A stretch of DNA of 56,304 nucleotides from a virus. Its lineage: Duplodnaviria; Caudoviricetes. A program made the position numbers and the translations under genes. The stretch spans positions 1 through 56,304 of IMG/VR virus record IMGVR_UViG_3300027972_000013. One strand, given 5' to 3'. Below, one piece after another: positions 1 through 43,760 of this stretch. Positions within the stretch are counted from its first letter, which is position 1; every line of letters starts with the position of its first letter. Below the pieces are notes generated by a model. That model had not been told where the DNA came from, searched no databases, and saw only the letters and a list, made by a program, of their open reading frames with translations.

Positions 1-295
1 TGTACGTCACCGTGATGTCGCCGCCCGCCCCGCTGAAGTCAGCATAGAGCCCCGTATCGCACTGCGCGTCGAAGATGAGCGTCGTGCTCATCACGTTCAC
101 GACAGCCGTGGGCGTGAGGTCAATGATTGCGATCACGTTTCCCGCCGCTGCCGGGTTGTCGTACACGGTCACGACGCACGCTCCGGTATCGAGGCGGTTG
201 ATGGTGATCGTGTGCAACACGCACGGCCCGGCTGACACCTGCGTACTGTCAGCGCAGTGCTTGTATCTCCAAGGGAAGTCCATTACAGACTGCAT
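1..295 (-). CDS. small beta-rich head-region protein (module B), truncated at window edge
   Basis: Open frame read manually from ATG 295 (MQSVMDFPWRYKHCADSTQVSAGPCVLHTITIN...TVYDN...GDITVTY) with SD GGAGG, directly after MuF gene; no stop before the edge. Confidence 0.55.
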   Translation of the reverse strand, partial: MQSVMDFPWRYKHCADSTQVSAGPCVLHTITINRLDTGACVVTVYDNPAAAGNVIAIIDLTPTAVVNVMSTTLIFDAQCDTGLYADFSGAGGDITVTY

Positions 296-1113
296 TACTC
301 CTCCTCTTTGACGCGGTAGATCGTGGCGTGTCGGCAACCGACGTGAAGCGGGGCCGTCTGCTCGCCGCCTGGGAACTCCTCATCCGTGTCAATCCAGCCC
401 ATGTCCATGGCGTCGCGGCAGATGTCCGAGGTGAGATCGTCGTCCGGGCCGGTGATCGCTTTCTCCATGGTGATGCCCGCTTTCTCGATCTCGCCAACGA
501 GGCGCGACTGGCCCTCTTCGTAGGCCATGGCGTTCTCTTGGACGGCGACAAGCTCGGCCCGCTGCGTCGTGAACCCGTCGAACGTGTCGCGGATCTCACG
601 GGCGATGGAGCCGTAGTCGCGCCCCTCGTCAATCCCCCGTGTGATGAGGCCACGCATCTCTATCTGTGTCGCCTCGTTGATCTTCGTGACTTCCTTTGCG
701 GCGTTGTCGCGTGCCCACTTCGTAGCCTGCTCGGGCTTCAACTTGAACGACGTCTCTAGGCCGAAGTCGGATGCGAGGCCCTGATATCCGCCCGTGATCC
801 CGTCGAACATGGACTCAAACAGCGCCTTCTCTGCCTGCTTGCGTGTCGTCGAGAACACGTCAGCGAAGGCGTCTGCGAGGTCGCCGTCGTATGCCGCCTC
901 GGTGACTTCGTTCGAGACGAATAGCTTGGCAATCTTCGGTAGGCGTGCGAGGTATGCGCGTCCCTGCTTAGCGAAGATGCTAGCAAACGCTTTCCGCGTG
1001 CGCTCGGTGGCGGCGTTGCGTGCGCGGTTACGTTCCGCCCGTGAGAGCTTCGTCGCCTCGCGGAAGACGGCTAGCGCGGAGTCACGAAGTAGAGACGAAG
1101 ACGCCACGGACAT
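295..1113 (-). CDS. minor head morphogenesis protein (MuF/SPP1 gp7 family), module B
   Basis: INEATQIEMRGLITRGIDEG, RAELVAVQE and C-terminal C..PLHVGCRH motifs; downstream of portal. Confidence 0.8.
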   Translation of the reverse strand: MSVASSSLLRDSALAVFREATKLSRAERNRARNAATERTRKAFASIFAKQGRAYLARLPKIAKLFVSNEVTEAAYDGDLADAFADVFSTTRKQAEKALFESMFDGITGGYQGLASDFGLETSFKLKPEQATKWARDNAAKEVTKINEATQIEMRGLITRGIDEGRDYGSIAREIRDTFDGFTTQRAELVAVQENAMAYEEGQSRLVGEIEKAGITMEKAITGPDDDLTSDICRDAMDMGWIDTDEEFPGGEQTAPLHVGCRHATIYRVKEEE

Positions 1114-1250
1114 CCTTGCCCTCCTGATGCAGCGCCGCACTCAGCGCGTAGTTGACGACAGCGATCCCGACGACAAGAGCAAGCACCTTCGTGCCGACCT
1201 GGCAGTCACGCGAGCCTTGGTCGCTCTGCGTCGTGAGGAAGATGCGCAGG

Positions 1251-1724
1251 CTATTCCGCAACGTGGCCTCCCTCTACCCATTCGACAACCTGCAAGATGA
1301 GCCACCGTTGCTCGCCTGTGAATCCGTGGCGGGAGAATTGGTATTCAAGGCCGTCTCGCAGCGTAGTGTTGCCGTACACATCGGATGCGGCCTTCCAGTC
1401 TAACACCATCTCGATAATGTCGAGCCATCCCATGCGCTCTGTCTTACCGTGGTGCTCAGGGTGGTGACTGTTCTCCGCGAAATGATGCGCGATGCACGGA
1501 GCGGTACGCATTGCGGCCTCATAGTCCGGGGATCCGATAGGATTCTCCCTAGCCACGTGATGAATCTCTACGAACCCACTGAATTCATCTACGCCGAGTT
1601 TCGATTGATCGTGGAAGCGGGCACGCATCGCAAGTTCTCCGATGAGACGTTCAATGTTACCTTCAACGTGTTTCTGGTGTCTCAGCAAAGAAGCAAGCAC
1701 GATAGCTCCCTCATCAGTCCGCAA
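1251..1724 (-). CDS. HD-like protein (DUF5662-like), paralog of 24595-25059
   Basis: HDQSK...HH..ENSHHPEHH...DIIEMVLDW motif. Confidence 0.7.
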   Translation of the reverse strand: MRTDEGAIVLASLLRHQKHVEGNIERLIGELAMRARFHDQSKLGVDEFSGFVEIHHVARENPIGSPDYEAAMRTAPCIAHHFAENSHHPEHHGKTERMGWLDIIEMVLDWKAASDVYGNTTLRDGLEYQFSRHGFTGEQRWLILQVVEWVEGGHVAE

Positions 1725-3318
1725 CGCGCGCCTCCTGTAGCAGCGTCAAGAATGACTTCATCTCGCGCCGCAGGGCCTCCGTCTGTTGAACCGCCTCGGG
1801 CGGCACCTCTTCCTCGGGCGGGAACAGATCGGCCATGACTTCCTCCACCGAGTGCTCGCCGAGCGCGACAAGCAGTTGCCGTGTCGTGTACTCTGGATCG
1901 AGCGTCCCGGCGAATGTGCCAAGCCCGCCCATCGTTGCGGCCTTCACGATCGCGTCGACCGCTTCGGTGACGTCGCGCTCTACGATCCCAGGGAACGTGA
2001 TCGAGACGTGCGTGTCGAGTGGCTCGCCGGTCTCGGGATCGTCCGAGTAGACCCACTTCAGTTCGTCCCAATCGTCAAGGATCTCCTCGCCGCCGATGCC
2101 GTCCACCGTGCCCGCCCGCGCCTTCTGCTCGATCACGTAGGTGCAGACGTTCTCGAGGATCTCAGCCCATAGTCGCTGCCTGCCAAGCATCGCAAGCTCA
2201 GTCGGACGGTCCAGGCTCTTGGCCGTTGCGAGCGTCCCGACCTCGGCGTCCCCGAAGAACGTCTCAGGGAATCCCATCGCGGCGCAGACCATGAGCAGTA
2301 GCCGCCTGCCATCCTGCGGGGAAGTCGTCGCGCCTGACGTGCGGATAGGCTGTAGGTCCGCCGCGCCCGCTGTCTCGATGTGGACGCTACCAGCAGACGG
2401 CGCGGGGGTGTAGGTATCGCCGCCGGCCATGATGCCTGAGTCCAGCTTGCCCTTGACGAGCGCCCGCTGATCCGCGCCGCCCTTCGTGACGATCTTCCAG
2501 GCGAACCGTGCCAAGCTGCGGGTGATGGTTGCCCAGTTGGCCAGGAACTCGTTATAGGCACGTGCCCAGTCCTGCGCCGCGTAGACTTCCGAGAGGCCGA
2601 ATCGCTGGCCCGAGAGACGGTTGACGGCCACGTGGTAGACCGGGTGATCCCAGTCGATTGGCATGCCCTTGTAGCTCGGCGGGCGATTCCGTGGCGTGTA
2701 CTGCCAGTCGGGGTAGAGCTTGTCGGCCTCTGCGGCAGCGATCTCGCCAAGCAGTGACGAGCGGGGGATTCGCCGCCGCAGGTAGTACCACGGTTCCTTC
2801 GCGTCCTCGGGATTCGAGATCACGTCTTGGATCTCGTCGAAGGGGATAGCGCGGACACGGAGGTCGCCGACGCCGTTACGGAAGAAACACAAGAACAGGT
2901 TGCCGTCGATCTTGAGGTCGGCATTCTGGGAGGTCATGGCGCGGGGGGTAGTCAGCTCGCCACGGTTCAACTCGTCGCCGACGAATGCTTGCACGATCGC
3001 GTCGACCGTCTCTTGCTCCGCCTGGATCGTCACGCCCTGACCGAAGACATAGGCATTCTCTAGGTCGACGGCCCGCTTGACGATGGGGTTCTTCATGTAG
3101 AACAGGCGCGACTCTCGGGCAATGCGGCGCAAGGCGTCACGCGAGAACTCAAGATCCTGTGAGCCGTACAGCCGATCCCAGCCGCGCTCCTCTAGCTCGT
3201 ACTCAAGCTCGGTGATCTTCTCTTGGAAGTTGGCCTCGGTGATGGCGAGACTCTGCTCGGTGCGTTGCAGGCGTTCGGAAAGCTCAGACACGGACAACTC
3301 AAGTAAACGCTCGGTCAC
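1714..3318 (-). CDS. portal protein, module B
   Basis: 534 aa; SRLFYMKNPIVKRAVDLENAYVFGQGV, DGNLFL and GFPETFFGD..GTLATAKSLDRPT motifs; lies between TerL and MuF. Confidence 0.8.
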   Translation of the reverse strand: MTERLLELSVSELSERLQRTEQSLAITEANFQEKITELEYELEERGWDRLYGSQDLEFSRDALRRIARESRLFYMKNPIVKRAVDLENAYVFGQGVTIQAEQETVDAIVQAFVGDELNRGELTTPRAMTSQNADLKIDGNLFLCFFRNGVGDLRVRAIPFDEIQDVISNPEDAKEPWYYLRRRIPRSSLLGEIAAAEADKLYPDWQYTPRNRPPSYKGMPIDWDHPVYHVAVNRLSGQRFGLSEVYAAQDWARAYNEFLANWATITRSLARFAWKIVTKGGADQRALVKGKLDSGIMAGGDTYTPAPSAGSVHIETAGAADLQPIRTSGATTSPQDGRRLLLMVCAAMGFPETFFGDAEVGTLATAKSLDRPTELAMLGRQRLWAEILENVCTYVIEQKARAGTVDGIGGEEILDDWDELKWVYSDDPETGEPLDTHVSITFPGIVERDVTEAVDAIVKAATMGGLGTFAGTLDPEYTTRQLLVALGEHSVEEVMADLFPPEEEVPPEAVQQTEALRREMKSFLTLLQEARVAD

Positions 3319-3416
3319 AGCACCCTCCCCCTATGATGGGCCAGACCATGCCACGACTTGCCTAGCCCCGCCCTGCCAAGTCGGGTGACGCTAGGTAGAT
3401 TGGACTACAAGGACTG

Positions 3417-3452
3417 CAAAAGAGCAAGGCCGCAGGTTGCTAGTCTGCGGCC
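3417..3452 (-). terminator. intrinsic terminator upstream of portal B
   Basis: GGCCGCAG-N9-CTGCGGCC hairpin followed by TTGCTCTTTTG on minus strand. Confidence 0.65.
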
Positions 3453-3516
3453 CGTGCTGCGGTGTGCGTAGCGTGGAGGTTAGGCCACGACTGCTAAGGC
3501 GGAGGTGATGGTTGTC

Positions 3517-3630
3517 TTACCATCCCTTGAACAGCGCCGTCAGGAACATCCGTGCGGCTATGTAGATCGCCAGTGCGCCCACGATCACGACTCCGACTAC
3601 CGTCAGAAGGAGCACGAGATACCAGGGCAT
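3517..3630 (-). CDS. 37-aa single-TM hydrophobic peptide
   Basis: MPWYLVLLLTVVGVVIVGALAIYIAARMFLTALFKGW; SD GGAGG; ATG coupled to upstream TGA; below the ORF-track cutoff. Confidence 0.6.
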   Translation of the reverse strand: MPWYLVLLLTVVGVVIVGALAIYIAARMFLTALFKGW

Positions 3631-4034
3631 CACTCCTCCCTGTAGACGTGGATGACGACGCGCTCGCCCGGCTGAATGCTTGCCGGCGACGGTATGTGGA
3701 CGGTGCGCATCGTGTCAGTCAGCTCGTTCTCGACGCGGCGCAGGTGGAAGGTGACGAGCGGCGTCGGCGCGTGAATGTTCACGATGCGATCTTCCGTGAG
3801 GACGACCGTCGGGAGCGTCCCCGTGCTCGTCTGCGGCACGTCCGAGGCGGGCACGTGAACCACGTCACGCGCCGTCGTTGTCATCACGGAGCTCGTCGGC
3901 TCGCCGGTAAGCGTCTTGCCGTCGGCCTCTGCCGTCTCCATGAGATCCCGCAACTGCTCATCCTCGCTCGCTCGCTGCCGGATAGTCGGCGGCGTCGTCT
4001 TGACCTTCGATCTATCGTAGACTCCCTTGGGCAT
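3630..4034 (-). CDS. hypothetical protein
   Basis: 134-aa ORF with SD AGGAGG, MPKGVYDR start. Confidence 0.6.
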   Translation of the reverse strand: MPKGVYDRSKVKTTPPTIRQRASEDEQLRDLMETAEADGKTLTGEPTSSVMTTTARDVVHVPASDVPQTSTGTLPTVVLTEDRIVNIHAPTPLVTFHLRRVENELTDTMRTVHIPSPASIQPGERVVIHVYREE

Positions 4035-4042
4035 CAGACCTC

Positions 4043-4306
4043 CTATCTAACCCACATTCCCGTTTCGCGGTACAGCACGTGCGCCTTGTGCGCGGCCTTC
4101 CCGTGTGCCTTCTTCCGACTGCCGAGATAGCTCAGGTTCATCCGTCCGAGCTTCCGTTGGCGTAGTGCCTGTCTGTATCGAGGATCGTCACTGCCCCCCT
4201 GTTCCGCATCAAACGGATCGGGCACGAACGCCACTTCCCCAGCGATCACCCTGTCTAGCTCGTGGCGCAGGTCGACCGGCGCAGGCTCGTACTCGTGGTG
4301 CTTCAT
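4043..4306 (-). CDS. hypothetical protein
   Basis: ATG overlapping upstream stop (ATGA). Confidence 0.5.
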   Translation of the reverse strand: MKHHEYEPAPVDLRHELDRVIAGEVAFVPDPFDAEQGGSDDPRYRQALRQRKLGRMNLSYLGSRKKAHGKAAHKAHVLYRETGMWVR

Positions 4307-4572
4307 AGCTTCCGCCCGCACCGGGGACAGAATTCCGGCTCCTGGTGCATAAGGACAGTCCCCCCCGCCTGAAACCTAGAAGCCTCGTCAATCGTATAGA
4401 TGCTCTTCCCCCGCCACTTCTCGCAGCACTCGGAGACTTCCTCTTCCACCGTCACGCGGATGTGCTTGCCTTCACACCCATCAGGGAGCGTCAGATGCAT
4501 CCAATTCCCTTCCGGTGTGGATGAACGGGTGAATATAACGGGGTTCTCTTTTACACGTATCGTCTTCCACAT
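4303..4572 (-). CDS. hypothetical protein with C-terminal FCPxCG zinc motif
   Basis: CCEKW...EFCPRCGRKL; SD GGAGGT. Confidence 0.55.
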   Translation of the reverse strand: MWKTIRVKENPVIFTRSSTPEGNWMHLTLPDGCEGKHIRVTVEEEVSECCEKWRGKSIYTIDEASRFQAGGTVLMHQEPEFCPRCGRKL

Positions 4573-4635
4573 CTCAACCTCCATGGCGGGGCAGGGCACA
4601 GCAGCTTCCTACCCCGCCAGTACCCCGGAGAGGGG

Positions 4636-4791
4636 CTACCTTTTCTCACGCTCTAGGTACTGCTCGATCGCCTCGATCACGACGTAGGACAGCGAGCGGT
4701 CGCGTTTCTTGGCGAGAGCCTGCATCTTCTCAATGAGCTTCTCTTCCGTCTTCGCGCGGGGGACGTAGATCGTGAAGTTACTTGGGTTCAA
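4636..4791 (-). CDS. ribbon-helix-helix (CopG/Arc-like) DNA-binding protein
   Basis: FTIYVP...LAKKRDRSLSYVVIEAIEQYL; TTG start after AAGGGGG. Confidence 0.7.
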   Translation of the reverse strand: MNPSNFTIYVPRAKTEEKLIEKMQALAKKRDRSLSYVVIEAIEQYLEREKR

Positions 4792-5251
4792 CGCGGCCCC
4801 CTTTGCGGATAGCACGGATAGCGAAGGCCAAGATGAACAAGCCAACCCAGGCCCCGACGATACCAATCCACATCGCCCATGGTAGCCCTGTAGAATCCTT
4901 GCGCGACATGGTCAGTGCGTCATTCAGCGCCTTATCCTGCTCATCCACGTACACGCGGAGCGCCTTCGCGTTCTCGCTGATCCCCGCCTGCTTGCCCGTG
5001 ATCTCGTCCATGCGCTTCGACAGCGCAGCTACCGCGTCCTCGTTCCGGTTGACGCTCACGGCGAGCGCATCGGCCTGCGTAGTGACCCGCTGCACAACAG
5101 ACACGTCAAAGGGCTGCGATGGCACCGAGACCGGCTGTACGACCGTCTCATACGTCGTCGGGTAGACGTTCAGATCAGACGCCGGGTAGAGCACCGAGAC
5201 GAGCCCGATCACAGCGAGCCCGCCTAGCCAGATGAGCACGAATGCTTTCAT
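4778..5251 (-). CDS. membrane protein (two TM segments flanking a coiled coil)
   Basis: Hydrophobic N- and C-terminal stretches with a heptad-like middle. Confidence 0.6.
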   Translation of the reverse strand: MKAFVLIWLGGLAVIGLVSVLYPASDLNVYPTTYETVVQPVSVPSQPFDVSVVQRVTTQADALAVSVNRNEDAVAALSKRMDEITGKQAGISENAKALRVYVDEQDKALNDALTMSRKDSTGLPWAMWIGIVGAWVGLFILAFAIRAIRKGGRVEPK

Positions 5252-5451
5252 CGAACCTCCTTGAAATCGTCACATGAGTTTTCGTTCTCCACGAACGTCC
5301 CTGGCCGTAATGCGCAACATCTGTACATACCTGTGCGGAAGAAGACCCGTGCTCTCTGCCATTGCTGGTGGACGCAGAATTGACACATCCTCGGAGTACA
5401 TCCTTCCCTGCGCAGGAATTGGATCATCGCCTCGCGCACGGGATTGCTCAT
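5248..5451 (-). CDS. small Cys-rich hypothetical protein
   Basis: CQFC...CC...SCDDF; SD GGAGG. Confidence 0.5.
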   Translation of the reverse strand: MSNPVREAMIQFLRREGCTPRMCQFCVHQQWQRARVFFRTGMYRCCALRPGTFVENENSCDDFKEVR

Positions 5452-5614
5452 CTCGCCTCCTTGTCCTTCTCTTCACAGTATCGTTTCGTATCCTCGCTGC
5501 CAATAGGGCGCCGCTTCCGCTCACGGATGGAGAACCGTAGACGCTCGCTCTGTTGCAGAGTGTCGTCGTCCTTGCCTTGGTAGCGGCCCTTGTCGCCCCA
5601 CGTCGCCATGCCGT

Positions 5615-5857
5615 TCATAGACGCCCCTCCTTCCGCCTCGTGGCCGCGATGTGTGACCCTTCCGGTATCCGCGCCCGGACGAGCCGCCGAATGATGGCCC
5701 GCTCGATCTTGCGTGCGATCCTCTTCATAGCCTTGTAGTCCTTGCTGTAGACCACATCACAGACACAGTACGTGATGTCGTTTCTGGATGGGCGTTCGGG
5801 CCACAGGTTCACGAAGTTCATTGCGACGTTCTCTGCGGTTTGGCGTGGTATCTTCAT
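5615..5857 (-). CDS. hypothetical protein
   Basis: ATG overlaps upstream stop; compact operon. Confidence 0.45.
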
Positions 5858-6078
5858 TCTGCCGCCTTTCCGTGACAGTTCTTGAACTTCTTCCCTGACC
5901 CGCAAATGCAAGGGTCATTGCGTCCCGGCTTCTTGATGTGGACCGGTTCCTTGCCGCTCGGACGCCACAGCGTGCGCTTGCCGACTTCGCTTTCGAGGTA
6001 GCGTTTCAGCCGCTTGTGCGTCTTCGTCCGTGTCCGTGTCGCGTCGCCGCGTTGGTTGGAGCGTTCGCCGCTCATCAT
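5854..6078 (-). CDS. SEC-C motif protein
   Basis: C-terminal [19 protein letters not shown]. Confidence 0.8.
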
Positions 6079-6099
6079 CTCCTCCTGTCGGTGATCCAG

Positions 6100-6522
6100 C
6101 TAGTGCGCTTCATTCGACATCGCGAGGACGAAGGCACGGGTCAGTTCACGCGGTGAGATGCGATTGAACAGTACTTCCTTCAACTCCCACGATGGATCGT
6201 CCGCCCATTCGTCTGCGCTGGATTGACGGGAGAACCATTCTGCGATGGCAAGCGTTCGTCCAGCCCACGTTGCATCGTCTAGTTTCTTGGCGTACAGGAC
6301 CAACTCCCACGCCGCCGCGATGTCGCGCGGGTAGTCGGGGACAAGGCGCAGCGCGTCCAGGGCCACGGCGACTGTGCTCTCTGCCGCGATACATCCGCCC
6401 TCATCCGGCATGCCCATGAACCGACGACCGTTTGCATTTTTGAACCATCTGAATCCCAGGATCTCCGCCGCCTTGACGCGCAGCTCATCGTCCGACAGCT
6501 TCATCACTTCGTCACGTGTCAT
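6100..6522 (-). CDS. phage protein, ABA-sandwich/BC1872-like
   Basis: ELRVKAAEILG...VPDYPRDIAAAWELV...PRELTRAFVLA pattern. Confidence 0.55.
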   Translation of the reverse strand: MTRDEVMKLSDDELRVKAAEILGFRWFKNANGRRFMGMPDEGGCIAAESTVAVALDALRLVPDYPRDIAAAWELVLYAKKLDDATWAGRTLAIAEWFSRQSSADEWADDPSWELKEVLFNRISPRELTRAFVLAMSNEAH

Positions 6523-6538
6523 CGCTCACCTCCGCCTG

Positions 6539-6567
6539 ACTCTACTCCTTTCCTGTACGATAGTCAA
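6539..6567 (-). promoter_or_regulatory. sigma70-like promoter downstream of TerL B
   Basis: TTGACT-17-TAGAGT followed by SD GGAGGTG and ATG 6522. Confidence 0.6.
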
Positions 6568-6626
6568 CCGTATGCGGGACGAACCTTGAATAACGCTCGG
6601 CTCTGTTCAACTTTCAGCCTCATCTC

Positions 6627-7919
6627 TTAGTACGGCGTGATGGCTTCATAGCCGTCATAGCTTGCATACTGCGGCTCGGTCGGCAATTCCAGCAGTAGCT
6701 CGGTCGCTGCCCACACTAGCGCGTCGAGTCTATCCGGCGAGTCGTCGTCCCCGGGCACCCATCCCGTGAGCTGATCCTCTAGCTCGGGGAACTCTCCGCA
6801 GTGGATGCCTAGCCCTTGCTCGTACAGCGCGGACACTGGCTCGGCGCGGACGGCCTTCCCTCTCGATGCGTGAACGTCCTTGTAGCTGACAAGGCGATCG
6901 TGCTGCCGGATGTTGGTCGCAACGAGGTCGCCGCCATTGTTCACTTCCCCGATGATCCGATCAGCGCCCCATCGTCGGTAGGCGTCGACCGCTGCCCATC
7001 CCCACTCGTGCGGCGTGTAGCGCCCCGACACGTCCTCGAGCACATAGAGCCGGTTGCCGAGCTTACCCGCGACCACGATCCCTGTCTCGTCTGACTTCTT
7101 CGACTTCGTCACGGCGGGGTCGACGGCGACCACGATGCGCTCCAGGTCAGGCGGCGCTTCCCCGCGCCTGATCCAGTCAGCCTTCCACAGCGCCCCTTCC
7201 GTGTCCGTGCCCCACAATCCAAGCAGGAACCGATCACGCTTGCGCTTCGATAGGCGACCGAGCACCGTCTCGATGTAGCCAGGCGGAAGGTTCGCCCTGT
7301 TGTCTTCGGGGTTCATCAGTAGGCTGGCGTAGTCGGACGGATCGGCAAGCGGCCCGCCGTCGTCTGGGCTGACGTGGTCGATCCACAGCTTGTGTGTCCA
7401 GTGTTTCGCGCGTGGCGGGTTCTCATCATAGTACGCTTTGAGTGTTAGCCCGGAATTCTCGGCAAGGCGCGTCCGTGCTGTCTCGACGGCGTCGTATGTG
7501 AGCTGGCTGCACTCGTTGAAGAAGATCGTCGAGTACTCGTGACCAAGGATCTTCTCGACGCGCTCCTTGTCGTCCAGCCCACCGATCCAAATCTCCGAGC
7601 CGTTGTGCGGGAACTCAAGCACGTAGTCGGTCTTATTCCAGTTGACCTCAAGGTCAGGCGCGACAAGCTCCAACACCTTCGGAAGCGTGTCCATCCAGAT
7701 CGAGGTCTTGACGTGGTTGAAGTGCAACCGCAGGATGAGGTGCCGCGACTTTCGATCAATCGCCCGGCACAGTAAAGCGTAGAGGGCGATAACGGTCTTC
7801 CCTGACCTAGACCCCCCATAGAGAAGGACTTGGGACGCCGAGCCGCCTAACAGGGCAATGGCTTCACGCTGGCGGGTAGTCTTAGAGAAGGCTCTTGTCT
7901 TCTTGGTCGAAGTGGACAT
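6627..7919 (-). CDS. terL: terminase large subunit B (PBSX/SPP1-like ATPase plus RNase H-like nuclease)
   Basis: Walker A YGGSRSGKT, Walker B IFFNECSQL, YDENPP, nuclease VAVDPA...SPDRLDA; start at ATG 7919 chosen, ORF is open from 8012. Confidence 0.9.
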   Translation of the reverse strand: MSTSTKKTRAFSKTTRQREAIALLGGSASQVLLYGGSRSGKTVIALYALLCRAIDRKSRHLILRLHFNHVKTSIWMDTLPKVLELVAPDLEVNWNKTDYVLEFPHNGSEIWIGGLDDKERVEKILGHEYSTIFFNECSQLTYDAVETARTRLAENSGLTLKAYYDENPPRAKHWTHKLWIDHVSPDDGGPLADPSDYASLLMNPEDNRANLPPGYIETVLGRLSKRKRDRFLLGLWGTDTEGALWKADWIRRGEAPPDLERIVVAVDPAVTKSKKSDETGIVVAGKLGNRLYVLEDVSGRYTPHEWGWAAVDAYRRWGADRIIGEVNNGGDLVATNIRQHDRLVSYKDVHASRGKAVRAEPVSALYEQGLGIHCGEFPELEDQLTGWVPGDDDSPDRLDALVWAATELLLELPTEPQYASYDGYEAITPY

Positions 7920-8310
7920 GGACGGAGCCGGAGTGCTCGATCTGCTGTTGGTCCTTCCAGCCATGATTGTTCTTGAGATCGAAGATGTAACCTGGCCCGT
8001 AGCCGTCTCCATCTAGCATGTGTTGGACCTTATTGGCCTCGCACCGTTGCTTGGCTGTCTTTACAGTTACAGAAAACTCAGGCTTGGCCTGATATTCCGA
8101 TAGGCCCTCCATGGTAAGATTGAGAGCCACAGCGAGTCCCTGGATCGTGTACGGCGCAGGGAAGCGAACGGTTACGACGCCTTCCTTTGTAACGATCTGC
8201 TTGACCCGAGAATCGCAGGCGGAGAAATAGGCGTCGATCTTGACCTGCATGTCGTCTGGAGTCTCGTACTTCACAGGTCTACCGCCTGGGTGTTTCTTAG
8301 GTTCGGGCAT
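7882..8310 (-). CDS. terS: terminase small subunit B (P22 gp3-like DNA-packaging protein)
   Basis: GRPVKYETPDDMQVKIDAYF...PYTIQGLAVAL...IFDLKNNHGWKD; immediately upstream of TerL B. Confidence 0.85.
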   Translation of the reverse strand: MPEPKKHPGGRPVKYETPDDMQVKIDAYFSACDSRVKQIVTKEGVVTVRFPAPYTIQGLAVALNLTMEGLSEYQAKPEFSVTVKTAKQRCEANKVQHMLDGDGYGPGYIFDLKNNHGWKDQQQIEHSGSVHVHFDQEDKSLL

Positions 8311-8317
8311 ATTTCAC

Positions 8318-9013
8318 CTATCCGATTGTATCACGTGTGAGAGGTTCCGTCTCCGCGATGGCGGCGGCGAGCCAGCAGTCGGGCATGTGGTCGAAGCTCT
8401 GATACCGCAGGCAGACGGGGCACGATAACGGCTCGTCGCCGTTATGGCTCTCAAGCCACTCGATCTCTCTGAGCCTTTCCAGCGGGACGAGGCGCATGGA
8501 CGAGGGCGCGATTCCAAGGTTGGCCCTGATCTCGTCAAGTGCGCCCTCCGACAATGGCGGCGGGACAACGTAGTCATTCCTGCCGGTGACGGGATCTTTT
8601 TGCAGCGAGGGCATGGACGAGGGTGAGCCGTCGCGTAACCGCCTTGCGTGCTTGACGTAGTCGGCTACGAACTGGACGAATGCCCTGAGCGCGGCGATCT
8701 GCCGGGCCTGGGCCGCGTTCTCGGCTTCGGCTGCCCGCCGCCCCTTCACGGCCTGGATGAGTGCCTTGTGTTCACCGTCGCGCATCTCGCGGACGAAGTT
8801 GACGCACCTCTCGGGGTTCATGTGAAACTCTGAGCCGAGTGGCGTCAGGCTGACGAGCGCGCGATTGAGAGTGTCGATAGTCGCATCCTTCTTTGCGTTC
8901 TCGGCGCGGAGGGCGGCGAGTTCGGCTGCCGCTGACGCCTTCACGGCGTGGTTGTCAATGTCGCGGTGATCCACTAGAGCGATGGCCTTCTCGATCCAGC
9001 CGGTATCGGTCAC
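8318..9013 (-). CDS. mosaic coiled-coil protein (Ead/Ea22-like), paralog of 52976-53746, C-terminal CxxC..H..DC
   Basis: AELAALRA and AQARQIAAL segments shared with 52976-53746; GTG start overlapping upstream TGA. Confidence 0.6.
   Translation of the reverse strand: MTDTGWIEKAIALVDHRDIDNHAVKASAAAELAALRAENAKKDATIDTLNRALVSLTPLGSEFHMNPERCVNFVREMRDGEHKALIQAVKGRRAAEAENAAQARQIAALRAFVQFVADYVKHARRLRDGSPSSMPSLQKDPVTGRNDYVVPPPLSEGALDEIRANLGIAPSSMRLVPLERLREIEWLESHNGDEPLSCPVCLRYQSFDHMPDCWLAAAIAETEPLTRDTIG
8492..8623. repeat. 132-bp repeat copy 1 (2 mismatches vs 53219-53350), bounded by 13-bp direct repeats
   Basis: GCATGGACGAGGG at 8494-8506 and 8611-8623. Confidence 0.95.
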
Positions 9014-9306
9014 GTCTCCTCCTTCAGGGCTGCGTCTATGCGGGCCGCCAGATCCGCGCTTATCGTGCAGGCCATGGCTTCTCCGAGCAGACAAGCGAGC
9101 CGGTCCTCGCGCGGGCGGCGGTTCCACAGGCCAACTGCCTGGCGTATTGCTTCCTCCATCTTGCCAGCGACCACACGGACTTCGGGGCCGTACATTCTGC
9201 AACCATTGGCGCATTTGACGACGGCGAAGGCGGCTCCATCACGCTGCCAGCGGATTGCCTCTCCAGCGCCATCGCATAGCGGACACGGCTTGATCTTCTC
9301 ACTCAC
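9010..9306 (-). CDS. Lar-family (restriction alleviation-like) zinc-finger protein
   Basis: KIKPCPLCDG...VKCANGC...AVGLWNRR. Confidence 0.65.
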   Translation of the reverse strand: MSEKIKPCPLCDGAGEAIRWQRDGAAFAVVKCANGCRMYGPEVRVVAGKMEEAIRQAVGLWNRRPREDRLACLLGEAMACTISADLAARIDAALKEET

Positions 9307-9586
9307 GGGCTTCCTCCTTCGCGGCACGGATCGCCCTTGCGCAACAACCAGCATCCTCTCCTGATGCGCGTTCATATAGGCGCGTGTCTGCCGCATCTTC
9401 CGCGCAGACTCTATGAACGATCAGATCGCAGATCCTCGCAGCCTCTTCGAGCGCGTCGCGGCGGGCGTCGCCGTACTCGCGCTTGAGGATCGCGGCGATG
9501 TCGTCAAGCTGCGCATCGGTCATGGCGAATCCGCATAGCGGCCCGACTCTGAGTTGTGCGACTACTTCCTCATGCTTGTCAGGCAT
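9299..9586 (-). CDS. hypothetical protein (RRDALEEAARIC family)
   Basis: MPDKHEE start with SD AAGGAGG; paralogous to the 3' part of 54098-54595. Confidence 0.55.
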   Translation of the reverse strand: MPDKHEEVVAQLRVGPLCGFAMTDAQLDDIAAILKREYGDARRDALEEAARICDLIVHRVCAEDAADTRLYERASGEDAGCCARAIRAAKEEARE

Positions 9587-9610
9587 CGGGGGCCTCCTTC
9601 GGCCTCTTCG

Positions 9611-9737
9611 CTCGCAGGCGTTCCAGCAGGCGACAAGATGCTCGGCGTTCGCCCATGCCTCTTGCTGACCATCCGCGCAACGCGAACGGGCATCGTTCTC
9701 TTTTCCGAACCCGGCAAGGACGTTGTCGCGCGCGTCC
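9611..9737. repeat. exact 127-bp copy of the window end (56178-56304)
   Basis: Identity begins at CTCGCAGGCG and runs to the last base of the window. Confidence 0.97.
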
Positions 9738-9844
9738 ACACCCGCAACAATCGCGCCATCTCCGCCCAATATCGTGAACTGACAGCGTCCATCGAGTAGC
9801 CGATCCTTGATCGCCAATCGTCCCGGCGTGTGCTTTGTGGTCAT
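9611..9844 (-). CDS. 5' part of phage KHTPG...ALAKARGE family protein; completed by 56040-56177 across the circular join
   Basis: MTTKHTPG...ANAEHLVACWNACE continues as GINPEAVPEII...ALAKARGEA* via the repeat. Confidence 0.7.
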
Positions 9845-9862
9845 GCTCTCCACCTCCGCACC

Positions 9863-9891
9863 ATCATACCATGCAAGCCCGGCCAATACAA
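9863..9891 (-). promoter_or_regulatory. sigma70-like promoter downstream of TerL A
   Basis: TTGTAT-17-TATGAT (TG-extended), SD GGAGGTG, ATG 9844. Confidence 0.6.
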
Positions 9892-9892
9892 G

Positions 9893-11203
9893 TCACAGCG
9901 ACACCGAGCCCACGCTGATCGTTCGATCGTGCAGCATCAGTTCGCTTAGGCCATGCACCATCGCGTCTAGCCTGTCCGGGCTCCAGTCTGTGTCGCCGTC
10001 CCAGTTGCAGAGCTGGTCCTCGAGCTCGGGGAAGATGCCAACATGATGGATGCGCCCTTGTTCGTAGAGGCTGGCGATCGGCTCGGCGCGCACCACCTTG
10101 CCACGCATGGCAGACACCGCCCGATACGAGACGGACGGATCGAGCGTTCGTAGGTTCGCCTCAACGAGGTCGCCGCCCTGGTTGACTTCGGCGATCACCG
10201 CATCCGCCTTCCATCGGTAGTAGGCCTCGATCGCCTTGCGCCCCCACTGCTGCGGCGTGTAGCGCCCCGATAGATCCTCGAGCACGTAGCCTTCCTCGCC
10301 GAGACAGCCAGCCACGATGATCCCCGTCTCGTCACTCGTCTTCTGCGCCGTCACCGCGGGGTCGATCGCTACCACCACACGCTTGAGGTCGGGGGCTGTC
10401 CGTATACGCACCTTCTCGATTAGCTCCCGCGTCCACAGCGCGCCCGGCACCTCCTCGAGCATGTCTCCGTAGAGCTCCTGTTGCCCAAGCGTCGTGCCCT
10501 CGTACTTCTTCACGATCTGCTCGTAGAACGCACCGGCAAGGTTCGGTCGGTTCTCGTAGGTGGACCCACGGATGACCGCCGTGGTCGGAGAGGAGATAAG
10601 GTCGCGGATGAGCGTCTTGGGCTTCGGTGTGGTCGTCACTACGCAGCGCGGATTGTCACCCAGGCGCAGCCCGAACATCAGCATGTCCCACGCCTCGGCG
10701 TAGCGCCAACTCGCTACCTCATCGCACCACGCGCCGTCATGCTGCGGGCCTCTCAGTCGCTCGGGCTCGTCGGCTGAGTAGGTCGTCGCCATCGCGCCAT
10801 TCTTCCAGGTGATCCGGCGCTTGCTTGGCTCGTACAGCGGCTTGTCCCAACTCGGGCAACACGATAGGACACCCGACTCTCCTTCGATCATCACGTCTCT
10901 AGCGTCTGCCGCAGTCGGGGCAACGATCGCCATGCGCTTGCACGCCCCGCCCTCTACTTGCGCCCGCACCCACTCAGCGCCCGCGCGAGTCTTTCCGAAC
11001 CCGCGCCCGGTGAGGAGCAACCACACGCGCCAGTCACCCGGAGGCGGAAGTTGCTTGGGCCGCGCTATCGCTTCCCAGCAGTACGCTCCCCGCTCTATCT
11101 CGTTAGGGTGCTGCGCTAGGTGAGCCTGAATCCTCGCCGCCGCTTGCGAGTCTAGCGAGTCGATCCAAGAACGCTCTTCCTCGGTCGCTGATTTCAAGCC
11201 CAA
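9893..11203 (-). CDS. terL: terminase large subunit A (RcGTA-like Terminase_6 type)
   Basis: TGRGFGKTRAGAEWV, ADEPERLRGPQ, AWCDE, VTTTPKP, VAIDPA...SPDRLDA. Confidence 0.93.
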   Translation of the reverse strand: MGLKSATEEERSWIDSLDSQAAARIQAHLAQHPNEIERGAYCWEAIARPKQLPPPGDWRVWLLLTGRGFGKTRAGAEWVRAQVEGGACKRMAIVAPTAADARDVMIEGESGVLSCCPSWDKPLYEPSKRRITWKNGAMATTYSADEPERLRGPQHDGAWCDEVASWRYAEAWDMLMFGLRLGDNPRCVVTTTPKPKTLIRDLISSPTTAVIRGSTYENRPNLAGAFYEQIVKKYEGTTLGQQELYGDMLEEVPGALWTRELIEKVRIRTAPDLKRVVVAIDPAVTAQKTSDETGIIVAGCLGEEGYVLEDLSGRYTPQQWGRKAIEAYYRWKADAVIAEVNQGGDLVEANLRTLDPSVSYRAVSAMRGKVVRAEPIASLYEQGRIHHVGIFPELEDQLCNWDGDTDWSPDRLDAMVHGLSELMLHDRTISVGSVSL

Positions 11204-11561
11204 CGCCTCCGCTCAACTCCATCTTCTCGGGAAGGCTCACGCCCGACATCTCAATGATCGCCTTCGCCGCGTTCACCTTCGCCGCAGCCGGGGACTTCTC
11301 GTCGCCAAGGACGTCGAGCAGCGCCTCGATTCCCTTGTCCGCCCCGCCAAGCAGCTTGTCTCGACTCGCCGTGCGGATTAGGTCGCGGATCGCATCAAGC
11401 TCGGCCACCACCACGGCAGAGCCAAGGAAGTTCTCGTAGGCGTTCTTCGCAGTAGATTCAGCCGCGCCCGCCTTCAACGCTGCGTCCTTAGCATTCTTGA
11501 AGCCGTTCGCCACGTACTCCTCGACGAACTTCCTCTGGAGCGTGGTCAGATCGTCAGCCAT
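11103..11561 (-). CDS. terS: terminase small subunit A
   Basis: LTTLQRKFVEEYVANGFKNAKDAALKAG HTH; overlaps TerL A start. Confidence 0.8.
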   Translation of the reverse strand: MADDLTTLQRKFVEEYVANGFKNAKDAALKAGAAESTAKNAYENFLGSAVVVAELDAIRDLIRTASRDKLLGGADKGIEALLDVLGDEKSPAAAKVNAAKAIIEMSGVSLPEKMELSGGVGLEISDRGRAFLDRLARLASGGEDSGSPSAAP

Positions 11562-11578
11562 GTCTCTCCGTATACGCA

Positions 11579-11821
11579 TCAGCCATGGTCGGGCCTCTTC
11601 TCTCTGTGCCAACCAGATCGCGTCAACACCGGCTCCCACCACTCGCCGTCAATGGACGCCCCGAGGATGTCGTCCGGCTCCACATAGGCAACAAGAATGT
11701 CGTCACGCATCACCGGAATCAGCATCTCTGCCCCATCGCGCACTTCCCTCCGCGCGCCGAATCGTTGAAGAATCGGCAAGGCCGCCAACTGCGCTTCCGT
11801 CTTGATATGCTCTTGGCTCAC
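11579..11821 (-). CDS. hypothetical protein
   Basis: 80-aa ORF translationally coupled to upstream gene. Confidence 0.45.
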   Translation of the reverse strand: MSQEHIKTEAQLAALPILQRFGARREVRDGAEMLIPVMRDDILVAYVEPDDILGASIDGEWWEPVLTRSGWHREKRPDHG

Positions 11822-12246
11822 AGCAACTCCCCCGCCTCTCTCCGCGCGATGTAGTCAGTCAGCTCATACGGATCGCGGTCGCGTATACGTCGCGCCGGAT
11901 TGCCCGCCACGATCATCTCGGGCGGCACGTTCTCGGTAACAACCGCCCCCGCCCCGACGATTGACCCCGCGCCAACTGTTACGCCCGGAAGGATGATCGC
12001 CCCGTAGCCGATGTAGCAGTTGTCCCCGATCACGCACCGCTCTCCCTCTAGCTGAAATGGCCCATGCGACAACAGCGCCGCCTCTCCGGCAATCACGCAG
12101 TTGCGCCCGATCCTCACCTTCTCGGGGAAGACGAGATCAACGCAGCCCCACACCTGGCAGTTCTCGCCAACCTCAACACCGCGGCGACGCAACTCCTCGA
12201 TGTCGCAGCGTATACGCTCTCTTAGCTGCGCCTCTTGACTCGTCAT
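11818..12246 (-). CDS. hexapeptide-repeat (LbH) O-acyltransferase 2
   Basis: VIGDNCYIGYGAIILPGVTVGAGSIVGAGAVVTENVPPEMIVAGNPAR. Confidence 0.88.
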   Translation of the reverse strand: MTSQEAQLRERIRCDIEELRRRGVEVGENCQVWGCVDLVFPEKVRIGRNCVIAGEAALLSHGPFQLEGERCVIGDNCYIGYGAIILPGVTVGAGSIVGAGAVVTENVPPEMIVAGNPARRIRDRDPYELTDYIARREAGELL

Positions 12247-12322
12247 CCGTCACCGCCAAGAACTAGAGGGGGTGGGGTCAAATGAAAGCCGTCAGCGGCG
12301 AGAAGGGGGTAGGTCTTTTTCA

Positions 12323-12634
12323 TCACCAACCCCCTACCGCCAACTTCCCAAGCAGGTCGCCCCATCTCATCAACACCAGCGTCTCGCCGCGATCCTGGCG
12401 AAACACCACCCCGTCCGCGCCGTCCGGTATCGCTAGGTACTCGGCCACTCTCGCCCGCCGCTTGGCCTGGAGGCGGCAACCTTGGACAAGCAGATCAACC
12501 GCTTCGCCCTCGCCAAGCGCCCGCCCGTTCGACCCCCACGCCCGCTCTGCCTCAAGCCCGTGCGCGACGGCCTCGTTGACCAATTCTCGCTCAAAGCCAG
12601 ATCCCTTCCGCTTGCTACCCGCGCCCAAGGTCAA
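12323..12634 (-). CDS. Holliday junction resolvase-like PD-(D/E)XK nuclease
   Basis: KRKGSGFERELV...VDLLV..RLQAKRR. Confidence 0.7.
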   Translation of the reverse strand: MTLGAGSKRKGSGFERELVNEAVAHGLEAERAWGSNGRALGEGEAVDLLVQGCRLQAKRRARVAEYLAIPDGADGVVFRQDRGETLVLMRWGDLLGKLAVGGW

Positions 12635-12860
12635 TCTCCCCCAGAGACCTCTCGCCCCTTACGTCCTTCACCACAACTTCCATCACGCCGCGCCCCTTGT
12701 CGTACAGACACTCCACCCGCGCAACGTCCTTCTCCCCTCGAGAGAACGTCCAGGTCGGCGCGTCTCCGTCCTCGATGTTGTAGCCCTCTCGCCCCATCCC
12801 AAACACCTCGCCAACAGCTAACCCGATAGCCCAGCGAGCGGACAAGGAAGATCCGCTCAC
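12615..12860 (-). CDS. hypothetical protein
   Basis: GTG coupled to upstream TGA. Confidence 0.4.
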   Translation of the reverse strand: MSGSSLSARWAIGLAVGEVFGMGREGYNIEDGDAPTWTFSRGEKDVARVECLYDKGRGVMEVVVKDVRGERSLGEIDLGRG

Positions 12861-13231
12861 GGAGCCACCCTCGCCGGACATCCGTATACGGTCGCGCCCG
12901 CCGGAACGTCACGGTTCACAAACGAGCACGCCCCGACGGTCGCCAAATCCCCAATCGTCACGCCGGGCATCACAACGGAGTTCGCGCCAACGCCCGCCCC
13001 GCGCCCTATCGTCACCTTGCCCCGCTTGCCGTCAATCGTCGAGACAGAGTAGACAGCGCAATGCGCCCCAAGCTGAGCCCCGTAACCGATCTCGACGCCC
13101 TCTTCGGCCTGGATGTAGGTGAATGCCCCGATGTCGGTATGCTCCCCCAACTCGAGACGCTCGGGGCAGCGCACGATCCATCCCCACTTCGTCGGCACTC
13201 CATCCTCGATGACGGGGCGCTCCCAGGTCAT
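12857..13231 (-). CDS. hexapeptide-repeat (LbH) O-acyltransferase 1
   Basis: LGEHTDIGAFTYI...VTIGRGAGVGANSVVMPGVTIG...GCPAR. Confidence 0.88.
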   Translation of the reverse strand: MTWERPVIEDGVPTKWGWIVRCPERLELGEHTDIGAFTYIQAEEGVEIGYGAQLGAHCAVYSVSTIDGKRGKVTIGRGAGVGANSVVMPGVTIGDLATVGACSFVNRDVPAGATVYGCPARVAP

Positions 13232-13404
13232 TTCTTCCCTCGCGATGGATGGAATTGGACCGCTGTCTTGGGAGGCATCCGCACCATCGCCCCAGTCGCC
13301 CCACACGCGGTACAGGCCATCCGCTTGTCGGCATCCTCGGGGCGATCAACTAAGACAAAGTCCTGCTCGCCGCAGACTTCGCACTCAAAGGTGTATCGAA
13401 TCAT
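13228..13404 (-). CDS. FmdB-like zinc-ribbon protein (58 aa)
   Basis: Manual translation MIRYTFECEVCG...MACTACGATGAMVRM. Confidence 0.6.
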   Translation of the reverse strand: MIRYTFECEVCGEQDFVLVDRPEDADKRMACTACGATGAMVRMPPKTAVQFHPSRGKK

Positions 13405-13473
13405 GTTGCCAAGATTGGCGCTGGGTTGTATACGAATCGCGGCTGCAACCGCTGCGTCACTTGTCCCTCACCC

Positions 13474-13743
13474 CTAGTTCTCTTTCATTGTACCACTCTG
13501 TACCCCGGAAACCAAGCGATCTAGCTGGCGTCCGGGCATTTCGTAGTCGATCTTCGTCACCGATCCATCATGGACATTGACGTGGCATTGCATGTCGGCA
13601 TGGAGTAGAGCGTACCGCGAGAATCTCGCCATCTCCTCTACGTTCCTCTTTGACAGCGCCGCCGCGCTTAGTATCGCCATCACGTCCTGAGCATTGAGAG
13701 CAAAGTGTTCGCCAACCACTTCCATCGCCGACTCCCAGGGCAT
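13474..13743 (-). CDS. hypothetical protein
   Basis: 89-aa ORF with G-rich SD. Confidence 0.5.
   Translation of the reverse strand: MPWESAMEVVGEHFALNAQDVMAILSAAALSKRNVEEMARFSRYALLHADMQCHVNVHDGSVTKIDYEMPGRQLDRLVSGVQSGTMKEN
13487..13515 (-). promoter_or_regulatory. sigma70-like promoter
   Basis: TTGGTT-17-TACAAT with TG extension. Confidence 0.45.
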
Positions 13744-13859
13744 CCCCCCCCCTCATAGCCCTGATTGGGTCCAGAATGTGGGGACTTGCGTTACTCGTCT
13801 CCGCATTCGCAGCAGCGAGCATCGTCCTAGCTATATCATACACGAATCGCTTGCTTTGT

Positions 13860-15715: not shown

Positions 15716-15767
15716 TAGCTGACTGCAATCAGCCGATCACATTGTAGCACATCTCGAGCCTCGAGAC

Positions 15768-16220
15768 CTATCCAAACCGCAATTCCAGCGACAGGAAGTG
15801 GAACTCTCGCAACCATGCCGGAGGGAGCCACATGTTCTCGTCGTTCTGCTCCGGCCTGTTCCACTCGACCACGTCATTCGACGGCCACCACTCCATCTCG
15901 AGGCCCCAGTAGTCCGCTGGGTAGTACATCCAGCCGAGCGCCTGGAATTGACGGACGTGGTTGAGCTCGTGGCGCAGGATGTACTCCTCCTTCTCCGTCC
16001 CGCGCAGCCGCTCGTTCAAGACAACCGTGTTGAAGAACGTGAACGCCGACCCCGGCGTCTCATCCGCGTAGACGAGAAACACTGGATCGACATGCACCGC
16101 CGCGCTGTAGAAGTTCACATCCACCGACACCTTCCACTCGTACACGCTGATCTTGTCCAGCCCGCCAGCGTTCGAGATGGCAATCAGGAACGCCGCGATG
16201 GCCGCGATACCGTTGAGCAC
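15768..16220 (-). CDS. HEXXH metallopeptidase-like protein with hydrophobic N-terminus
   Basis: ILRHELNHVRQ; N-terminal IAAIAAFLIAI; SD GGAGG. Confidence 0.6.
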   Translation of the reverse strand: MLNGIAAIAAFLIAISNAGGLDKISVYEWKVSVDVNFYSAAVHVDPVFLVYADETPGSAFTFFNTVVLNERLRGTEKEEYILRHELNHVRQFQALGWMYYPADYWGLEMEWWPSNDVVEWNRPEQNDENMWLPPAWLREFHFLSLELRFG

Positions 16221-18749: not shown

Positions 18750-18775
18750 CTTCTCCCTCCTCTCTAGGTCGCGGC

Positions 18776-19174: not shown

Positions 19175-19184
19175 AGCATGGTCC

Positions 19185-43758: not shown

Positions 43759-43760
43759 CG

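Follow-up and report, generated by a model that had tools for sequence, protein, structure and literature searches.

The window, the whole 56,304-nt stretch analyzed here (IMGVR_UViG_3300027972_000013), is very probably an assembly chimera that combines one complete phage, phage A, with a fragment of another, phage B. An initial annotation, made from the letters alone, had described two complete, different packaging and head modules linked on one molecule, and had offered three readings: a single backbone with alternative head modules, a tandem or recombinant of two phages, or an assembly chimera. It is the third that the evidence favors, in the form of an independent contig (L009), contigs from public runs and the closure of the phage A cycle. 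We therefore reject a phage with two head modules; the contig is most likely an ordinary assembly artefact, in which a short identical stretch held by two co-occurring phages most likely led the assembler to put both into one contig. The public listing of the record gives one linear genome, 76% complete.

Anatomy of the contig

An exact 127-nt direct repeat links an internal site to the end of the contig (9611-9737 = 56178-56304). Its left extension is zero, its second copy stops at the contig's last base, 56304, and the chance expectation for an exact repeat of this length is ~1e-65. Between tail and cycle, it is the sole exact match of at least 127 nt, the next longest being 95 nt. The fork that the initial annotation read at 9611 is borne out by this repeat, which gives the contig the shape of a "lollipop," with a cycle at 9611-56177 and a tail at 1-9610. 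The parts are as follows:

1..9610, minus strand: lollipop tail, probable phage B fragment, running off the contig at position 1
9611..56177, minus strand: phage A cycle, 46,567 bp, probable circular-mapping temperate siphovirus genome
9611..9737, no strand: repeat copy 1, the only tail-cycle link at k = 127
56178..56304, no strand: repeat copy 2, the cycle-closure overlap
9611..9848, minus strand: 238-bp tract identical in A and B, 5' portion of a small 'HTPG...ACWNACEGINPEAVP'-family gene
9299..9886, minus strand: fusion open reading frame (ORF) of the tail configuration, 92 HTPG-family codons and then Y'1

From the exact 127-nt end overlap, we infer a k of 127 for the assembler, which is not on record. 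The contig holds no inverted repeats of at least 40 nt, no GC step is evident at the join in a 2-kb sliding profile (0.59-0.64 throughout), and megablast found nothing matching 1-11700 among 50,697 GenBank phage records.

Gene content of the two phages

The cycle appears to be a coherent temperate siphovirus. In profile searches, it carries one full set of phage functions, comprising a serine integrase, a replication initiator, an HNH endonuclease and small and large terminase subunits (TerS/TerL), together with portal, protease, capsid, adaptor, major tail protein, tape measure and tail tip. With this set, the overlap of its ends and genes that stay intact on closure, 9611-56177 qualifies as a complete circular-mapping genome. 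The gene order runs from TerS-A/TerL-A through ~3.5 kb of small genes to an HK97-type portal, protease and capsid:

11103..11642 (ORF), minus strand: TerS-A, Pfam Terminase_2; likely ATG at 11561 or 11579
9893..11203, minus strand: TerL-A, Pfam Terminase_6N and Terminase_6C (80.8 and 56.9 bits)
50466..52307, minus strand: portal A, Pfam Phage_portal (E 3e-42)
49875-49219, minus strand: S78 prohead protease, Pfam Peptidase_S78
49226-47865, minus strand: HK97-type major capsid protein, Pfam Phage_capsid
16184..17719, minus strand: large serine recombinase (integrase), phrog_95 (E 7e-93) and Pfam Resolvase, Recombinase and Zn_ribbon_recom

The Pfam matches at 52307-50466, 49875-49219 and 49226-47865 thus agree with the portal, protease and capsid first annotated for module A, but the MuF protein placed beside them was not confirmed, as Pfam detected no Phage_Mu_F in either 52307-50466 or 50324-49872. 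TerL-A has 80 relatives at 43-67% amino acid identity; with the best at 67%, no close relative of phage A confirming the closure was found. The contig L012 repeats the spacing of phage A, with a TerL, 3.4 kb and an A-type portal. Phage A without phage B was found neither in the searched collections nor in any of four public runs.

The tail, judged by its genes, is probably a fragment of a different phage. It contains MuF B, a DUF5662 gene, portal B, ~3.3 kb of small ORFs, TerL-B, TerS-B and the small Y' genes, and the order in phage B is DnaB helicase, small genes, TerS-B/TerL-B, ~3.3 kb of small genes, portal B and MuF B. Its main features are:

7882..8310, minus strand: TerS-B, Pfam GP3_package; 100% amino acid identity in L009
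6627..8012, minus strand: TerL-B, Terminase_6N/6C (63.1 and 53.1 bits) and Terminase_3; 99% amino acid identity in L009 and 98% in L011
1714..3318, minus strand: portal B, phrog_10963 (E 1.2e-84); 96% amino acid identity in L011
295..1140, minus strand: MuF-like minor head protein B, Pfam Phage_Mu_F (E 2.6e-9)

Pfam domains confirm the two annotated TerS/TerL pairs on the minus strand, TerS-B/TerL-B lying ~1.6 kb downstream of TerL-A, and in TerL-A and TerL-B alike both terminase domains score above the Pfam gathering score. Portal B (phrog_10963) and MuF B (Phage_Mu_F) likewise proved correctly named. Module B was called complete, but the stretch ends at position 1 before any capsid gene. That the terminases are unrelated was not confirmed: the TerS proteins fall in different Pfam families, but TerL-A and TerL-B share 53% amino acid identity over the C-terminal 208 residues (E 2e-63) and ~70% nucleotide identity over 384 nt. 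The portals are without similarity. The small ORFs between TerL-B and portal B, the Y' ORFs and the fusion ORF with its pieces matched no Pfam or PHROGs family. We rejected a satellite or hijacker reading of phage B because it has its own TerS, TerL, portal and MuF.

The shared tract and the continuation beyond it

The independent contig L009 (8,642 bp) is colinear with 6628-9856 at 99.1%. Since it shows 0 mismatches over 7234-9848, it crosses the 9610/9611 junction. Past 9856, any relation to the window ceases (24% identity), and L009 enters a DnaB-helicase region, not TerL-A; this continuation is 94.6% identical to the region of the 3' end of the DnaB/wHTH helicase gene in L011. Over the whole tail, L009 and L011 align in blocks of ~75-100% nucleotide identity with gaps between. 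B-type sequences first differ from the contig at 9849/9850 and diverge completely after 9856, so that the identical stretch common to A and B would be only about 238 bp (9611-9848). This tract is longer than k = 127 and conceals a second fork at 9849-9856, invisible from the contig alone and missed by the initial annotation. A further tract shared by A and B spans 141 nt at 97% identity, 95 nt of it exact.

Contigs from public runs, which were kept as short-k contigs that break at forks, behave in the same way. In run X4, record 24 (882 nt) aligns to 9122-9856, spanning 9610/9611, and then continues for 147 nt unlike the contig, the first 30 of these loose letters being the L009 continuation; in X5, record 32 bridges the same junction and has 11 loose letters of this continuation behind 9856. 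X1, the best-matching run, contains contigs of phage A without a single difference (records 6-8), a B-type loose end behind 9856 (21 letters) and an A-specific contig that begins at 9845, and hence the second fork is found in a run containing both phages. The initial annotation had expected a mis-join to show as a break at 9610/9611, with module B continuing into a different upstream sequence. The junction itself is genuine, being spanned by L009 and the X4 and X5 contigs; the different upstream sequence (the DnaB-helicase region) is there, but 238-246 bp further on, at 9849-9856.

Phages A and B both occur in X1 and X2. In X1, contig depths were 18.5, 18.3, 22.6 and 11.6 for tail pieces (0 differences) vs. 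13.3, 13.9 and 12.7 for A, values that are not copy numbers and do not cleanly separate tail from A; summed depth bins of 25-70 for the tail vs. ~13 for the cycle combine several variants of B and likewise do not give copy numbers. The X4 contigs match six listed tail pieces with 0 other letters. Contigs of X4/X5 cover 1-10005, with little or no cover (0-0.54) over 10006-20000, and contain 0.49 of the words of 7300-12300, a pattern that fits B without A, although the parts without cover prove nothing. L009, L011 and the public runs may stem from one sampling campaign.

Upstream of TerS-B, L011 carries a PD-(D/E)XK nuclease, RecT, a DnaB helicase and small genes, and no second terminase within 10 kb; this B-type relative thus appears to have an ordinary one-terminase layout. 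Both B-type contigs, L009 and L011, have upstream genes of their own, without TerL-A. With flanks of up to 10 kb, two TerL loci on one contig were seen in none of 82 distinct TerL-related contigs and at none of 11 portal-B-type loci (on 10 further contigs and on L092, which is the same contig as L011). Both TerS/TerL sets on one molecule were not encountered outside this contig, and the tail is joined to TerL-A in no contig other than IMGVR_UViG_3300027972_000013 itself. A scan with a 40-mer of the shared tract matched only L009 in viral_contigs and gave 0 matches in metagenome_contigs. The headline of modules linked on one molecule is therefore unsupported, as L009 and the run contigs leave the contig path before TerL-A; we infer that the B tail and TerL-A do not lie together on any molecule.

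The gene at the fork differs between the two paths. In the tail configuration, the HTPG-family part is severed in the middle of an invariant motif, and the reading frame meets no stop through the ribosome-binding site (RBS) GAAGGAGG (9600-9593) and the ATG (9586) into Y'1; the identical fused ORF is present in L009 (184 aa from an alternative start). Closing the cycle yields a 137-aa ORF, with the junction inside the motif ACWNACE/GINPEAVP (at the slash), which is invariant and colinear across the junction in all 11 aligned homologues (35 were found). Closure of phage A would thus restore a conserved gene, and the tract in B is what remains of the 5' part of a small gene, truncated there but intact in A. 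A remnant in one phage and an intact gene in the other looks like the trace of a recent recombination, illegitimate or mosaic, and the identity of the tract itself suggests that the exchange was a recent mosaic one.

Assembly account, alternatives and known systems

In the account that we favor, distinct phages A and B would live together in the sampled community. Because the ~238-bp tract exceeds the assembler's presumed largest k-mer (127), the de Bruijn graph would have two entries and two exits there. The assembler would have passed from the B tail through the shared tract, made a full round of phage A and halted on re-entering the tract. An assembly chimera is marked here by an exact shared stretch that equals or exceeds the assembler's k in length (the 127-nt repeat, and 238 bp against L009) and by an alternative continuation past that stretch (L009, X4, X5 and X1), including in a sample with both parts.

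Alternatively, the contig could represent a real recombinant or cointegrate, formed when A and B co-infected or co-resided in a host and homologous recombination at the 238-bp tract placed B's Y'/TerS-B/TerL-B/portal-B block after TerL-A; such molecules would be replicative or prophage DNA, or a minority hybrid phage. This is unlikely. The identical tract does point to very recent DNA exchange between the A and B lineages, as does the 141-nt tract (97% identity, 95 nt exact), the two phages co-occur in X1 and X2, and the contig path is a permitted walk through a cointegrate of this kind. Since short contigs cannot phase 238 bp, a minor true recombinant carrying the tail-TerL-A join is also topologically compatible with all observations. 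However, wherever the junction was assembled independently (L009, X4, X5 and X1) the B-type continuation follows at 9856, the tail-TerL-A join is confined to the contig under study, no related contig has two TerL loci, and A plus a whole B would probably far exceed the 46.6-kb genome that phage A packages. We give similarly little credence to the idea that the tract is an active recombination site of two co-resident temperate phages that produces a minority of real hybrids with TerS-A/TerL-A plus TerS-B/TerL-B/portal-B; were it true, head and packaging modules would have been caught while being exchanged naturally on a single backbone.

Very improbable is a single backbone with the same early and tail genes and either head module downstream of TerL-A, as the fork at 9611 suggests when read from the contig alone. 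B-type contigs have different upstream genes (DnaB, RecT and a nuclease in L011, the DnaB 3' end in L009) and their own TerS/TerL, so that module B does not sit on the backbone of A, and the tail version of the fork gene is a truncated remnant. Site-specific integration of A into B, or into a B prophage, with the repeat as att core, can be dismissed as a hardly credible reading: phage A does encode a large serine recombinase, and direct repeats flanking an element yield the same lollipop graph, but the repeat and the integrase gene are 6.3 kb apart, the repeat falls within a conserved coding motif, serine-integrase att cores span a few bp vs. 238 bp for the shared tract, and the tract in B is a gene remnant typical of illegitimate recombination.

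With an assembly chimera as the preferred reading, the main value of the result is database hygiene. Two entries should replace the record, one for the complete 46,567-bp temperate siphovirus (9611-56177) and one for the 9.6-kb piece of another phage; kept whole, it would mislead analyses of gene content, taxonomy, host prediction and "two-terminase phages." A k-length repeat between a contig's end and an internal site is diagnostic of a circular genome with a foreign tail. The remaining biology would be ordinary, with two otherwise dissimilar freshwater-sediment phages in one community sharing a 238-bp identical tract, which may be the fresh footprint of a mosaic exchange.

In phage mosaicism, phages that otherwise differ swap short stretches at the borders of genes. 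The case resembles it in that A and B show no relationship for the greater part of their genomes yet share the 238-bp identical and 141-nt 97% tracts, and in that one breakpoint falls just upstream of an RBS. Set against that concept, the Hendrix/Hatfull concept cited in PMC10104058, nothing here is unusual; at the other breakpoint a conserved motif is interrupted, and the gene remnant left there continues in frame into the following gene. Chimeric contigs are defined and measured in simulated viromes in PMC4247695. As in de Bruijn chimeras from inter-genome repeats, two genomes share a stretch longer than k at which the assembler crosses over, and the contig's end overlaps the contig itself over the length of k. 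Unlike in those with an end-to-end overlap, the overlap here is end-to-internal, and the record was consequently classed as linear and 76% complete, although it contains an entire circular-mapping genome with 9.6 kb of foreign tail attached. Both TerLs are of the Terminase_6 type (Terminase_6N/6C), module A resembles HK97-type modules (Phage_portal, Peptidase_S78 and Phage_capsid) and module B resembles portal-plus-MuF modules (phrog_10963 portal and Phage_Mu_F); unlike either kind of module, A, B and L012 have 3.3-3.5 kb of small, function-unassigned ORFs between TerL and portal.

The repeat at the contig end and the cycle of phage A

The record (56,304 bp, listed as linear, CheckV completeness 76%) holds nearly all of its long ORFs on the minus strand. 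The fork at 9611 that the initial annotation had described is borne out by an exact 127-nt direct repeat (9611-9737 = 56178-56304; chance expectation ~1e-65), whose second copy ends where the window ends and which has zero leftward extension. This repeat gives the contig the shape of a lollipop: a cycle of 46,567 bp (9611-56177; phage A) and a 9,610-bp tail (1-9610; phage B). When a de Bruijn assembler running at k = 127 re-enters a used vertex, it leaves an exact 127-nt self-overlap at a contig end, and the assembly behind this record was presumably made at that k. No further exact match of at least 127 nt was found between tail and cycle, the longest remaining one being 95 nt (8529-8623 = 53256-53350).

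The cycle is a coherent phage, which, in addition to the genes listed, encodes a head-tail adaptor, a major tail protein, and tail-tip proteins.

Genes of phage A
11642-11103 (ATG 11561 or 11579), minus: TerS-A, Pfam Terminase_2
11203-9893, minus: TerL-A, Terminase_6N and Terminase_6C
14714-13860, minus: HNH endonuclease
15715-14711, minus: replication initiator
16184-17719, minus: large serine recombinase (phrog_95, E 7e-93; Resolvase, Recombinase, and Zn_ribbon_recom)
39839-37344, minus: tape measure protein
49226-47865, minus: capsid protein, Phage_capsid
49875-49219, minus: S78 protease
52307-50466, minus: portal A, Phage_portal

Closing the cycle creates a 137-aa ORF across the junction. 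A contiguous 87-aa junction-spanning piece (window 56303-56040) matched 35 homologues, of which 11, picked for higher query coverage, were aligned. All 11 were colinear over the junction, with an invariant motif, ACWNACE/GINPEAVP, and the end of the 127-mer falls exactly between its E and G; closure is therefore biologically sound. The related contig L012 (TerL 63%, portal 48% identical) has the same arrangement of TerL, 3.4 kb, and portal as phage A. Phage A on its own was not seen in the contig collections or in the public sequencing runs X1, X2, X4, and X5.

The ACWNACEGINPEAVP-motif family has a second paralogue in phage A at 21351-21440 (ORF 21231-21533, minus), 63% identical to the closure gene over 30 residues. 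Some database homologues of this family carry PF27050 in precomputed annotation, and a local Pfam scan of the window's copies gave no match. The gene for a 1291-aa tail protein (35411-31536) contains an 82-nt unit four times (32342-32726; 62-71% identical, spacing 60/183/60), which points to an internally repetitive, fibre-like segment.

The tail and its relatives

The tail belongs to a phage other than A, and the join between tail and repeat is real. Here the closure-gene ORF lacks everything past ...NACE and stays open via GAAGGAGG (9600-9593) and an ATG (9586) into the next gene, Y'1; given this lost 3' part and stop-free read, the tail ORF is a truncated gene remnant. Phage B was found in two independent IMG/VR contigs, L009 and L011, which together with the runs possibly come from a single campaign. 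L009 (8,642 bp) is colinear and 99.1% identical to window 6628-9856 and has zero mismatches over 7234-9848, so that it is identical across 9610/9611; it also encodes the fused ORF. It departs from the window at 9849/9850 (24% identity past 9856), and in place of TerL-A it carries sequence 94.6% identical to L011 5881-6677, a stretch made up of the 3'-terminal part of a DnaB/AAA_25/wHTH helicase gene and one small ORF. L011, from a 21,279-bp contig, resembles the window in TerL-B (98% aa), portal B (96%), and MuF B (83%). Upstream of TerS-B it holds a PD-(D/E)XK nuclease, RecT, a 741-aa protein, the DnaB helicase, and small genes, some related to phage A genes at 55.6-54.2 kb; a second terminase was not found in it. 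Judged from these contigs, A and B have only 9611-9848 (238 bp) in common, and a second fork, invisible from the window, lies at 9849-9856.

Ten public runs contain part of 7300-12300, and X1, X2, X4, and X5 were compared with 1-20000 as Logan contigs. Record 24 of X4 (882 nt) lies on 9122-9856, spans 9610/9611, and then leaves the window's sequence for 147 nt, whose first 30 letters equal the L009 continuation. Record 32 of X5 (9301-9856) takes the same course with 11 loose letters. The six X4 pieces listed against the tail (6,625 nt) show no other letters. X4 and X5 lack cover of 10006-20000, which is compatible with B without A, but absent cover was not counted as evidence. X1 contains phage A contigs (records 6-8, 9845-20000, no differences; the A-specific contig starts at 9845) together with a loose end of 21 letters past 9856, the same one as in X4 and X5; where A and B co-occur, the shared tract thus has a B-type exit. 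Contig depths in X1 are ambiguous (tail pieces 11.6-22.6 vs. 12.7-13.9 for A).

A DUF5662 gene lies between portal B and MuF B (1251-1724, minus; Pfam E 7e-25); L011 lacks it at this site (nothing there corresponds to window 1275-1717), contigs of X1, X2, and X4 join 1254 directly to 1718, and phage A has a paralogue at 24595-25095 (66% nt identity). The gene resembles a mobile "moron" that is polymorphic among B variants. Loose ends at 9475, 9481, and 9599 in X1, X2, and X5 mark more B variants departing just upstream of Y'1, and in L011 (6677-8290), ~1.6 kb of small genes resembling those of A takes the place of the gene remnant found in L009 and the window. Mosaic replacement has a hot spot upstream of TerS-B.

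Packaging and head genes

Pfam matches for all four genes confirm that the window contains two TerS/TerL pairs.

Packaging and head genes of phage B
8310-7882, minus: TerS-B, GP3_package
8012-6627, minus: TerL-B, Terminase_6N/6C and Terminase_3
3318-1714, minus: portal B, phrog_10963 (E 1e-84)
1140-295, minus: MuF B, Phage_Mu_F

Other parts of the initial description did not hold. In the two TerLs, called unrelated, the C-terminal 208 aa are 53% identical (E 2e-63), and 384 nt agree at ~70% nt identity; it is the portals that are unrelated. Pfam found no MuF domain in module A, and module B, described as complete, is cut off by the window's edge at position 1.

The N-terminal halves of TerL-A (9893-11203) and TerL-B (6627-8012) are unalignable by BLASTP, similarity being confined to the C-terminal (nuclease) half, and the TerS partners are assigned to separate Pfam families (Terminase_2 vs. 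GP3_package). The TerLs may thus be mosaic at the level of domains, with an N-terminus that goes with the type of TerS. In contig L046 (8210-16887), a terminase resembling TerL-A (59% aa) occurs together with a portal resembling portal B (40%) and a protein resembling MuF B (29%); terminase and portal types have therefore been reassorted among related phages. In phage A, phage B, and L012, TerL and portal stand 3.3-3.5 kb apart, a spacing unusual for a head module; the small ORFs in between match hardly any family, and one carries a Lar-like zinc-ribbon domain (A 53743-54105; B 9010-9396).

Small-ORF gap between TerL and portal
3319-6626: phage B
52308-56177 (plus 9738-9892): phage A
6673-10052: L012

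Origin of the contig

The contig is very probably a chimeric graph walk. The assembler would have passed from a B fragment through the 238-bp shared tract into the whole of circular phage A, and stopped. A true cointegrate or hybrid, formed by recombination at the shared tract, is topologically possible because phasing 238 bp is beyond the reach of short-k contigs, yet we consider it improbable. Two linked packaging modules do not appear to be a real feature: two TerL loci occurred in 0 of 82 distinct contigs fetched via TerL-B and TerL-A, where both queries always matched one and the same gene per contig, and at 0 of 11 portal-B-type loci (flanks ≤10 kb in both surveys; the 11 loci add 10 contigs, L092 being the L011 contig again). 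That a single backbone uses alternative head modules is very unlikely and conflicts with the replication genes and terminase that B has of its own. Integration of phage A by its own serine integrase is scarcely credible, since it does not fit a tract that is 238 bp long and sits within a coding motif, 6.3 kb away from the gene for the integrase.

Under the preferred reading of a chimeric walk, the 238-bp tract, with one breakpoint just 5' of an RBS and the other inside the conserved motif, is the fresh trace of a mosaic exchange between phages A and B, which co-occur. A second A/B tract (8483-8623 vs. 53210-53350; 141 nt, 97% identity, 95 nt exact) points the same way, as additional evidence that A and B exchanged DNA recently; it is too short to make a graph link at k = 127. 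Its product, a 43-aa patch with 91% aa identity, lies in otherwise divergent ORFs of 298 and 283 aa.

Both phages belong to known kinds, to which they add new members. The record should be split at 9610/9611 and the 127-nt overlap trimmed. The literature documents chimeric contigs as well as unitigs shared by mosaic phage genomes (the Phables preprint, PMC10104058; on chimericity, PMC4247695).
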